DNA of 64,000 nt, from contig DESI01000005.1 of assembly GCA_002361235.1 (NCBI GenBank), forward strand, positions 204-64,203. Reading direction: 5' to 3'. The DNA is from Porphyromonadaceae bacterium UBA3318 (GTDB taxonomy: Bacteria > Bacteroidota > Bacteroidia > Bacteroidales > Muribaculaceae). Under the pieces are notes generated by a model, which saw only the letters and a list, made by a program, of their open reading frames with translations, had not been told where the DNA came from and did no database searches. Shown here one piece after another: positions 61,806 to 63,710 of this stretch (its first letter is position 1; each line of letters begins with the position of its first letter). The position numbers were made by a program, and so were the translations under genes.

Positions 61806-61909
61806 AGTTGAAAAAGTTGAAAAAGTTTATATAGTTAAGATAAATGTAACGACATCCCGATAAACACACTATTCTCTTAACTTTTTAAACTTTATAAACT
61901 TCATAAACT
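61806..61909 (+). repeat. Composite palindromic element, copy 1: 9-bp-period arms around ATAAATGT-N19-CACTATTCT
   Basis: AGTT at 61806, 61815, 61824, 61833; AACT at 61879, 61888, 61897, 61906. Confidence 0.85.
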
Positions 61910-61915
61910 AACCTT

Positions 61916-63601
61916 ATGGCTGACGATAAAAAAGTAATTTTCTCGATGGTGGGCGTCTCCAAGATCGTGCCCCCGCAGAAACAGATTCTTAAAGACATTT
62001 ACCTTTCGTTTTTCTACGGCGCCAAGATTGGCATCATCGGTCTGAACGGATCGGGAAAATCGACACTCCTCAAGATCATAGCCGGCATCGACAAGTCCTA
62101 TCAGGGCAACGTGGTGTTCTCGCCCGGTTACAGCATCGGCTATCTGGAACAGGATCCGAAACTTGATCCCGACAAGACGGTGCGTCAGGTGGTGGAGGAA
62201 GGCGTGCAGCACGTCATGGATCTGCTTAAGGAATATGACGAGGTGAACAACGCCTTCGGCGACCCCGAAGTCCTGGAGGACGAGAACCGGATGAACAAGC
62301 TGATAGAGCGTCAGGCCGAGTTACAGGACAAGCTCGACGCGGCCGATGCCTGGAACATCGACAACCGTCTGGACCGCGCCATGGACGCGCTGCGTTGTCC
62401 GCCGGACGACCAGCTGATCAAACACCTGTCCGGAGGCGAGCGCCGTCGCGTGGCTCTGTGCCGCCTGCTGCTGCAACAGCCCGACATCCTGCTGCTCGAC
62501 GAGCCCACCAACCACCTCGACGCCGAGTCGGTGGAATGGCTTGAACAGCACCTGGCACAATATCCCGGCACCCTTATCGCCGTAACTCACGACCGTTACT
62601 TCCTCGACCATGTGGCCGGCTGGATTCTGGAACTGGACCGCGGCGAAGGCATTCCATGGAAGGGCAACTATTCCTCATGGCTTGAGCAGAAGACACAGCG
62701 CATGGCTCAGGAGGAAAAGCAGGCGTCCAAGCGCCGCAAGACCCTGGAGCGCGAGCTGGAATGGATACACATGGCGCCCAAGGCCCGTCAGGCCAAGGGG
62801 AAGGCGCGTCTGTCCAGCTACGACCGGTTGCTGAACGAGGACCAGAAGGAGCGCGAGGAGAAACTGGAGATCTACATTCCCAACGGTCCCCGTCTGGGCA
62901 ACAAGGTGATCGAGGCCAACGGCGTGGCCAAGGCTTACGACGACAAGGTGCTGTTCTCCGACCTCAACTTCATGCTGCCCAGCAACGGCATCGTGGGCGT
63001 CATCGGTCCTAACGGCGCCGGCAAGACCACTCTGTTCCGTCTCATCATGGGGCTGGAAAAGGCCGACAAGGGTACGTTCGACGTGGGCGACACCGTCAAG
63101 ATAGCATACGTGGACCAGAACCACAAGGACCTGAGCCCCGACAAGAGCGTGTACGAGGTTATCTCGCAGGGTGTGGAATCGTTCCGTATGGGAGGCCGCG
63201 ACGTCAACGCCCGCGCCTATCTGTCGCGCTTCAATTTCACTGGCGCCGACCAGGAAAAGAAGATCGGTGTCCTCTCCGGAGGCGAGCGTAACCGCCTGCA
63301 CCTGGCCATGGCCCTTAAGAGCGAAGGCAACGTACTGCTGCTTGACGAGCCTACCAACGACATCGACGTCAATACGTTGCGTGCATTGGAGGAAGGTCTT
63401 GAGAACTTCGCCGGATGCGCCGTCGTCGTGAGCCACGACCGCTGGTTCCTGGACCGCATCTCAACCCATATCCTGGCGTTCGAGGGCGACAGTAAGGTGA
63501 CATTCTTCGAAGGCAACTACTCGGAATACGAGGAGTTCAAGAAGCGCCGCGACGGCGCCGACAGCACCCCGCACCGAATCCGCTACCGCAAACTGACCTG
63601 A
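61916..63601 (+). CDS. ettA: Energy-dependent translational throttle protein EttA (ABC-F)
   Basis: ILKDIYLSFFYGAKIGIIGLNGSGKSTL, two ABC domains, LSGGERRRVALCRLL, ELEWI, PHRIRYRKL; no TM segments. Confidence 0.93.
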   Translation: MADDKKVIFSMVGVSKIVPPQKQILKDIYLSFFYGAKIGIIGLNGSGKSTLLKIIAGIDKSYQGNVVFSPGYSIGYLEQDPKLDPDKTVRQVVEEGVQHVMDLLKEYDEVNNAFGDPEVLEDENRMNKLIERQAELQDKLDAADAWNIDNRLDRAMDALRCPPDDQLIKHLSGGERRRVALCRLLLQQPDILLLDEPTNHLDAESVEWLEQHLAQYPGTLIAVTHDRYFLDHVAGWILELDRGEGIPWKGNYSSWLEQKTQRMAQEEKQASKRRKTLERELEWIHMAPKARQAKGKARLSSYDRLLNEDQKEREEKLEIYIPNGPRLGNKVIEANGVAKAYDDKVLFSDLNFMLPSNGIVGVIGPNGAGKTTLFRLIMGLEKADKGTFDVGDTVKIAYVDQNHKDLSPDKSVYEVISQGVESFRMGGRDVNARAYLSRFNFTGADQEKKIGVLSGGERNRLHLAMALKSEGNVLLLDEPTNDIDVNTLRALEEGLENFAGCAVVVSHDRWFLDRISTHILAFEGDSKVTFFEGNYSEYEEFKKRRDGADSTPHRIRYRKLT

Positions 63602-63607
63602 AACCAA

Positions 63608-63710
63608 AGTTGAAAAGGTTATAAAGTTGAAAAAGTTAAGAGAATAGTGCAGTCTTCCGAATCTCAACACATTTATCTTGACTTTTTAAACTTTTTCAAC
63701 TTTCCAAACT
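63608..63710 (-). repeat. Composite palindromic element, copy 2 (inverted relative to copy 1)
   Basis: Reverse complement reads AGTCAAGATAAATGT-N19-CACTATTCTCTTAACTTTTT, matching copy 1. Confidence 0.85.

Follow-up and report, generated by a model that had tools for sequence, protein, structure and literature searches.

The Correia/NEMIS repeats of Neisseria, the ERIC/IRU repeats of enterobacteria, and the RUP repeats of pneumococci are 100-150-bp non-coding foldback sequences with inverted ends (see PMC10969869). They are present in tens to hundreds of copies, lie in intergenic or intercistronic positions, differ in presence or absence between strains, contain no internal transposase, and are co-transcribed with neighboring genes. 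Repetitive extragenic palindromes (REPs) and bacterial interspersed mosaic elements (BIMEs) lie mostly after genes in operons and are mobilized in trans by REP-associated tyrosine (Y1) transposases (RAYTs). For the Bacteroidota, a full-text literature search and a 2024 review gave only the MITEs (miniature inverted-repeat transposable elements) of Porphyromonas. Here, we analyzed a 64,000-nt stretch (the window) of contig C55 from the draft genome of Porphyromonadaceae bacterium UBA3318 (GCA_002361235.1; G000, the source genome; 2.68 Mb, 96 contigs, 54% G+C), in which ettA is bracketed by two mutually inverted elements of ~105 nt, at 61806-61909 and 63608-63710.

An earlier note on this DNA, made from the sequence alone, proposed either that the two elements are recombination sites that invert ettA, and so act as a switch on a translation factor, or that they represent an undescribed MITE- or REP-like family. 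Our analysis favors the second proposal, with corrections. Many further copies exist, their presence or absence differs between genomes, and their inner segment has a modal length. We think it likely that the ettA elements are independent members of a dispersed AT-rich foldback family of non-autonomous, MITE-like DNA in a sub-clade of gut Bacteroidales. A full-text literature search found no earlier description of this family, which we refer to as the AGTT family.

Results

The position and sequence of the two elements are as the earlier note quoted them. The copies are 80% complementary to each other along 99 nt, with a longest exact inverted-sense stretch of 20 nt in common, and a repeat finder returned each one as an imperfect palindrome, in keeping with the self-folding that the note described. 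As read from the sequence and the 9-mer frequencies, the upstream copy opens on the + strand with a left arm, AGTTGAAAA AGTTGAAAA AGTTTATAT, and an invariant box AGTTAAGA at 61833-61840 (61806-61840 in all), continues with a 34-nt inner segment, TAAATGT-AACGACATCCCGATAAACA-CACTATTC (61841-61874), and closes on the + strand with the invariant box TCTTAACT and a right arm, TTTTAAACT TTATAAACT TCATAAACT (61875-61909). The downstream copy (63608-63710), delimited from its sequence and by sister and strain comparison, has the opposite polarity and is made up of an arm (63608-63633), AGTTAAGA (63634-63641), a 34-nt inner segment (63642-63675), TCTTGACT (63676-63683), and a second arm (63684-63710). 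The motif ATAAATGT-N19-CACTATTCT occurs at exactly two sites in the window, 61840-61875 (+) and 63641-63676 (-), compared with a mean of 0.08 in shuffled sequence.

We took a census of the family in the source genome by searching for arrays in which AGTT recurs every 9 bp and faces AACT with the same period, which recovered more than 20 palindromic elements, and by using their alignment for nhmmer. The family was found at 46 places, with ~27 full-length copies and ~18 copies that consist of one arm only. The exact N19 motif for which the earlier note had proposed a genome search has only 3 sites because it is too strict, and it is the looser definition that yields the full and half copies. The elements are AT-rich, typically 95-115 bp long, and contain no open reading frame (ORF) of note. 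Their arms are built of tandem 9-bp units, AGTTkAnAA, of which three per arm are commonest and 2 to ~10 were seen; by position, the frequencies within the 9-mer are A 0.97, G 0.99, T 0.95, T 0.93, T/G/A, A 0.94, any base, A 0.86, and A/G. The two arms are mirror-image arrays, that is, terminal inverted repeats with ends AGTT...AACT, and the near-invariant box AGTTAAGA to the left of the inner segment is mirrored by TCTTAACT on its right.

The earlier note had described a variable centre with a fixed length of 19 nt. Among 25 full copies of the source genome, the inner segment measures 34 nt in 13 and 33 nt in 4, the others ranging from 28 to 43 nt, and in other genomes it spans 26 to ~44 nt. 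The modal length thus stood, as a real tendency and not a rule, and length does not vary freely among copies. The inner segment carries an unlike box at each of its two ends, mostly AATAGTG at one and CACATTT or GGTATT at the other, and because these two differ, the element has a polarity. Its middle 19 nt are variable but not random; pairs of copies agree there with a mean identity of 0.40, and there are several semi-conserved positions and traces of an ancestral CAGAC...GTCTG stem, vs. 63% for the two inner boxes. An element at C54:18514-18626 has the same architecture with other units (AGTTATGGG x3, a 59-nt centre, and CCCATAACT x3), an indication of a superfamily with nothing but the AGTT/AACT anchor and the 9-bp period in common.

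The locations of the copies were judged with our own crude gene caller, a codon log-odds model. Most full copies (19/26) lie between co-directional genes and occupy almost all of the gap, with four between divergent and two between convergent genes. Intercistronic copies typically begin 0-30 nt from the upstream stop and end ~10 nt or less from the downstream start, and their polarity is unbiased with respect to transcription (11 same, 8 opposite). Another gene is bracketed by two copies at C31:10036-12047; the arrangement around ettA is therefore not unique, since copies are dense enough for other genes to be bracketed likewise.

Comparison with relatives indicates how the two copies at ettA arose. 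In a sister species of the same genus (G059; CAJKBH01, "uncultured Porphyromonadaceae"), the ettA region is ~96-98% identical to the window, yet the upstream element is absent and the TAA of def is followed by the 8-nt CCTGACAC and then the ATG of ettA, while the downstream copy is kept at the same site and is 98% identical. The def-ettA junction is likewise empty in CABQXY010000029 (~93% identical), where the downstream element occupies the same site with a diverged centre (25/34 positions identical). The element is absent on both sides of ettA in G018 and G006, which are remoter members of the genus. By parsimony, these alignments show the upstream copy, together with its junction bases (61801-61911, the stretch missing in the two sister species), as a lineage-specific insertion into the 8-nt def-ettA junction and the downstream copy as the older one. 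The ages differ because two sister species that lack the upstream copy retain the downstream one, and with two separate insertion events, the inverted bracket around ettA is a coincidence. Both junctions of the upstream copy have a TAA in direct repeat (61798-61800 and 61909-61911), and this can be taken as a target duplication only tentatively because the right junction has also changed, from CCTGACAC to CCTT.

Variation among strains was sampled through the exact 561-aa EttA sequence, which was present in 41 blocks of public assemblies; the 23 contigs read resolved into five distinct places. One public contig (DKVS01000045.1 of GCA_002491315.1) is 100% identical to the window across the 3,585 bases compared. 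In 5/5 places, rpmE, def, ettA, and the transporter gene follow one another on one strand, with a 115-nt def-ettA spacer and an upstream copy whose centre is identical. The downstream copy is identical in one place, altered in two, and absent in two. The altered form has three substitutions and a 3-nt deletion in its centre, plus changes in one arm unit. Where the copy is absent, the TAA stop is followed by a 31-nt spacer, and identity in the downstream gene falls to 95%, a value suggestive of a recombinant tract. No inverted ettA allele was seen in the five places, so that only one of the two orientations envisaged in the earlier note was encountered, in assembled contigs that could miss a rare subpopulation. 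Comparison of orthologues gave no convincing support for flipping of the centre.

Gain, loss, and decay of copies were also evident at other sites. In a wider scan, in which each species was represented by one genome, the strict core pattern matched at 86 loci, and their comparison with the source genome revealed orthologous filled sites as well as clean filled/empty pairs (e.g., locus L079 vs. C22:29929). Single-arm deletion remnants were found in the source genome on C7 (vs. L100) and C40 (vs. L091). Orthologous copies differ chiefly through gain or loss of whole 9-mers. The orthologue of the copy at C2:7034, in the sister species (L062; G059:C2, CAJKBH010000002.1, about 4600-4860), has arms of ~ten 9-bp units (CTTAACTTT repeated), an expansion that shows minisatellite-like instability of the arms. 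At C78:27965-28167, one copy is nested in the centre of another. The centre of the inner copy (at C78:28009) matches that of the copy at C32:7107 (7107-7223) in 32/33 positions, and the similarity stops exactly at AGTT...AACT, with no obvious duplication, which indicates a duplicative event of fairly recent date.

To compare constraint along the element, we counted variable columns among orthologous copies in sister species. They amount to 3.4% in the two 8-nt boxes and 5.1% at the AGTT/A6/A8 positions of the units, compared with 25% at unit positions 5/7/9, 20% in the inner segment, and 9.4% in the flanks, which are mostly coding. When the units of the search pattern were excluded, the difference between AGTT/A6/A8 (6.9%) and positions 5/7/9 (24.8%) persisted (Fisher p = 6e-6). 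A centre that drifts at an approximately unconstrained rate explains why copies have the same length with different sequence. The AGTT..A.A pattern can be read in two ways. One is that these positions would be held because something recognizes them in place, a protein being the natural guess given that no covariation is seen between opposite-arm units. In the second reading, unit turnover, which alters only those positions that differ among units, mimics such conservation.

The distribution of the family was examined in a genus sample of 61 genomes and an order sample of 301 genomes, with the reversed pattern as control. The strict core pattern was found in 2/61 genus genomes (the source genome and its sister species G059), and the control had zero matches. 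When the whole region was compared by BLAST with 30 relatives, parts of the element matched only within the source genome and in none of 18 other genus members. The bare architecture, (AGTT-N5)x3 ... (N5-AACT)x3, occurs in 4/301 genomes of the order; the control was zero in three of these, the source genome among them, but in the fourth (G308), it matched as often as the real pattern, so that this genome is doubtful. The species-representative scan placed the family in a few Muribaculaceae-like metagenome-assembled genomes (MAGs; CABQXY, CAAFAB, UQMZ, and CADBNR among them), as well as in Duncaniella and Muribaculaceae MF13079. A sister type, with units AGTTAAAGG/AGTTAAGGA and core AGTTAAGAC...GTCTTAACT, was found in Segatella copri/Prevotella. 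This patchy spread fits a horizontally spreading selfish element, not a conserved host system.

Half-site maps of three complete carrier genomes (G073-G075) contained no kilobase-spaced inverted pair, and blastn of the element against phage and plasmid collections gave no match. On C40, the 2.4 kb that separate two half-elements are occupied by ordinary genes. Among ORFs of the source genome, only rhamnose genes are multi-copy. These form a rhamnose isomerase/rhamnulose-1-phosphate aldolase pair at C33:25116-28170 and C57:3950-7015, at least 85% identical, and are either a true duplication or strain redundancy in the MAG. We also considered the centres as spacer-like sequences and rejected the idea, as 25 concatenated centres gave no match to phages.

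The source genome contains a second dispersed family, which is G+C-rich and consists of ~250-275-bp units bounded by inverted CCTCTCCGAGGCAA motifs (79 motif matches), with sites at C57:109296-110220, C56:1-600, and C55:65636-66000. Both Y1 (IS200/RAYT-like) transposase genes of the genome lie between ends of this family, which has the look of either a REPtron or an IS200-type element accompanied by non-autonomous derivatives. Several AGTT half-elements adjoin its units.

The genes around ettA lie on the + strand. Our own pattern scan for the canonical Bacteroidota promoter (TTTG-N19-21-TAnnTTTG) predicted one promoter upstream of rpmE (60703-60734) and one upstream of def (TTTG-N20-TAATTTTG, 61127-61158, + strand), and none in or near either element. 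The def gene, for peptide deformylase (61246-61800, with its TAA stop at 61798-61800), was assigned from its ORF and from Pfam PF01327 (Pep_deformylase) on an identical public gene. It is followed by the ettA-like ABC-F gene (61916-63601, 561 aa), whose public copies show the Pfam order ABC_tran - ABC_tran_Xtn - ABC_tran, and by the start of a gene for an Asp-Al_Ex family transporter (63733-64000; ORF and Pfam), which has no promoter motif of its own. The elements nearly fill both gaps (115 nt between def and ettA, 131 nt between ettA and the next gene), and ettA has no separate promoter motif, both in line with the earlier note. We infer that ettA is probably read from the def promoter, the sole promoter motif available to def-ettA.

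Other repeat arrays lie elsewhere in the window. A mirror array of ~10-bp units, in which CGGGATTnT faces ATCCCGATAA, is located at 60600-60690, between a terminator hairpin (60582-60599) and the rpmE promoter; it has the same design of an array facing its own complement as the ettA elements, with an unrelated unit. At 25962-26036, within a coding region, a palindromic array of 9-bp period has ATTAGAGTT units facing CTCTGATGG/CTCTGACCT units, and related units of the AGTTATCAG type are found at C42:21327 and C48:1775-1841. Two further arrays are unrelated to the AGTT family: a 14-bp unit, CCCTTTTCTTTTGT, repeated x5 in tandem after a terminator-like hairpin (1031-1100), and simple tandem 12-15-bp units resembling GCGCGTATGTGTATT (52840-52920).

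Discussion

The AGTT elements are small and non-coding, their copies are dispersed, they have terminal inverted repeats, and they show insertion polymorphism, as bacterial MITEs do. Several results weigh against placing them among MITE-like DNA. The related autonomous insertion sequence (IS) with the same ends that is expected of a MITE was not found in a limited search of the draft source genome, the three complete carriers, phages, and plasmids. The transposase domain rve had no above-threshold match in the assemblies of the two genus carriers (both ~90% complete), and DDE_Tnp_1 was uncorrelated with the presence of the element. The Y1 transposase whose co-occurrence the earlier note had suggested is not co-distributed with the family either: Y1_Tnp is present in 26/61 genus genomes vs. 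2/61 element carriers, an association that looked promising in 8 genomes having failed in 61, and the two Y1_Tnp genes of the source genome belong between the ends of the other repeat family. When searched for in the source genome and the fetched loci, the centre of the upstream copy matched only itself, so no donor copy was found. Possible target duplications are limited to TAA at the upstream copy and maybe AAAC at the downstream copy, with none obvious at the nested copy, although the junctions have diverged. Finally, the in-place conservation of AGTT..A.A exceeds what a purely selfish, immobile relic would need, which hints that the element may have a resident function, although turnover of units could give the same picture.

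If the elements are MITE-like, their 9-bp-phased AGTT..A.A units look like multiple sites for a transposase or recombinase that would act in trans. After insertion, the arms would change by slippage of whole units, the copies would decay by deletion to half-elements, and the centre would drift at an approximately neutral rate. At ettA, both copies are presumably transcribed within a def-ettA-transporter message from the def promoter, to which they would add imperfect hairpins of -18 to -26 kcal/mol between cistrons. The upstream insertion would break the tight def/ettA junction seen in relatives, and by analogy with other intercistronic palindromes, mRNA processing or stability could be altered.

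Other explanations were weighed against the same evidence. Two inverted copies 1.7 kb apart, with no promoter inside the bracket, could in principle serve as sites at which ettA is inverted, by site-specific or homologous recombination, and so disconnected from the def promoter. This proposal of the earlier note is now largely refuted, and we hold it to be very improbable: the two copies differ in age, the upstream one being recent and the downstream one dispensable (absent in two strains); a single orientation is found in all five distinct places, which represent 23 contigs from many samples; the exact inverted identity is just 20 nt; no recombinase adjoins, the neighbors being rpmE, def, ettA, and the transporter gene; the promoter, located upstream of def, is not within the bracket; and other genes are similarly bracketed because copies are dense, as on C31. 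It is more improbable still that the elements are integron-like attC sites with ettA as a gene cassette. They are imperfect palindromes with a variable centre directly after genes, and GTTAAGA/TCTTAAC is faintly like GTTRRRY/RYYYAAC, but the order of the boxes is reversed (GTTAAGA 5' and TCTTAAC 3') and their last and first bases break the consensus. Moreover, the neighbors are housekeeping genes in conserved synteny, the copies are scattered and form no cassette array (intI was not searched for), and the 9-mer arms have no attC counterpart. A selected function at the RNA level, where the DNA repeats merely encode a long hairpin in a polycistronic mRNA (an RNase III/E site, a stabilizer, or an attenuator) and the elements are likened to REP/BIME, ERIC, or Correia repeats, would suit copies that lie inside operons a few nucleotides from stops and starts. 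On the + strand, shuffled sequences fold less stably than either ettA copy, whose energies are -18.3 and -25.7 kcal/mol (z of -3.2 and -4.1). However, RNAalifold of 21 copies paired only invariant positions, at -8.4 kcal/mol and with no compensatory change; in paired units, mismatches are free to occur at positions 5/7/9; the folding of inner segments does not surpass that of shuffles (mean z -0.3); and the copies have no orientation bias. In addition, Rfam gave 0 matches at the gathering score and, below it, only chance microRNA-hairpin matches far under threshold, and no terminator-like stem with a T-run was present within the elements. We therefore regard an RNA-level function as quite improbable.

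A further explanation is that the elements are protein-binding arrays of the host, whose units serve as iterons recognized by a DNA-binding protein, be it nucleoid-associated, partition-like, or a repressor. On this view, the elements would be kept for organizing or regulating operons, and mobility would be secondary. The conservation described above speaks for such arrays, as AGTT/A6/A8 and the AGTTAAGA boxes are 4-7x less variable than neighboring positions across sister-species orthologues and 93-99% conserved among paralogues whose centres fell to 40% identity, and covariation is lacking between the variable positions of the two opposite arms, which means that units are conserved as sequence and not as a stem. 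Against it, the family is confined to 2/61 genus and 4/301 order genomes; sister species and strains differ by gains, losses, and truncations of copies, regardless of neighboring genes; unit number ranges from 2 to ~10 per arm at one orthologous site; and unit gain and loss can partly produce the apparent constraint. Taken as a whole, host arrays strike us as unlikely. A more specific proposal, also on the unlikely side though somewhat easier to entertain, is that AGTTkAnAA units are iterons read by a protein at a 9-bp phase and that selection keeps the elements since binding punctuates operons such as def-ettA. If true, this would make them a mobile module, regulatory or architectural, of a new class in gut Bacteroidales, and the type in Segatella copri (with AGTTAAAGG units) and other mirror arrays of the source genome would be parallel families that the same machinery had made.

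On the MITE-like interpretation, which we consider likely, the result at ettA is a deflating one, as there is no switch on a translation factor. What emerges is a family whose ends are expandable arrays of 9-bp units, with related types in abundant human-gut taxa (Muribaculaceae-like MAGs and Segatella copri). The family inserts precisely between cistrons of housekeeping operons, and assemblies break at its copies. The presence or absence of copies provides strain-typing markers for uncultured lineages, and the pattern of conserved positions suggests that a binding protein may exist.

Comparison with Known Systems

With the Correia, ERIC, and RUP repeats, the AGTT family shares size, foldback structure with inverted ends, copy number, location, strain polymorphism, and lack of an internal transposase, and the co-transcription known for those repeats is what we infer for the ettA elements. 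Correia elements differ in having unique terminal inverted repeats of 26 bp, a TA duplication, a site for integration host factor (IHF), and outward promoters, whereas the AGTT family has arms of a variable number of tandem 9-bp units, a target duplication that is tentative at best, and no host-type promoter motif: the Bacteroidota promoter is absent from the elements, and its -7 box occurs in 3/52 element strands.

At each end of Tn7, Mu, IS21, and Tn402-type elements, one short transposase-binding site recurs in several direct repeats, with a mirrored set at the opposite end, and the AGTT arms have this mirrored multi-repeat layout. In those systems, however, the sites are ~19-22 bp long and irregularly spaced, and the elements are long and encode rve-type transposases, a domain that was not detected in the two genus carriers. 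REP/BIME sequences are extragenic palindromes as well, and a Y1 gene is present in the source genome. They differ as 20-40-nt G+C-rich hairpins with a conserved 5' tetranucleotide, compared with AT-rich elements of 100 nt here, and the REP/RAYT system is not matched: the Y1 genes of the source genome are flanked by the other, G+C-rich family, and Y1 is common in genus members without AGTT elements.

BrickBuilt, a MITE of Porphyromonas gingivalis, is also from the Bacteroidales. According to its abstract (PMC4596501), it is organized around variable-number short tandem repeats, is strictly intergenic, and, like the AGTT family, has a narrow host range, with ~19 copies per genome. As described there, a single block of 23-nt direct repeats separates its leader and tail subunits, its inverted ends are small, its distance from genes is 49-591 nt, and promoters are present within it (PMC4596501), whereas AGTT elements abut stops and starts within a few nucleotides. 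Compared at the level of that abstract, the two have no common sequence, and the AGTT family is set apart by two mirrored arrays of 9-nt units around a unique core.

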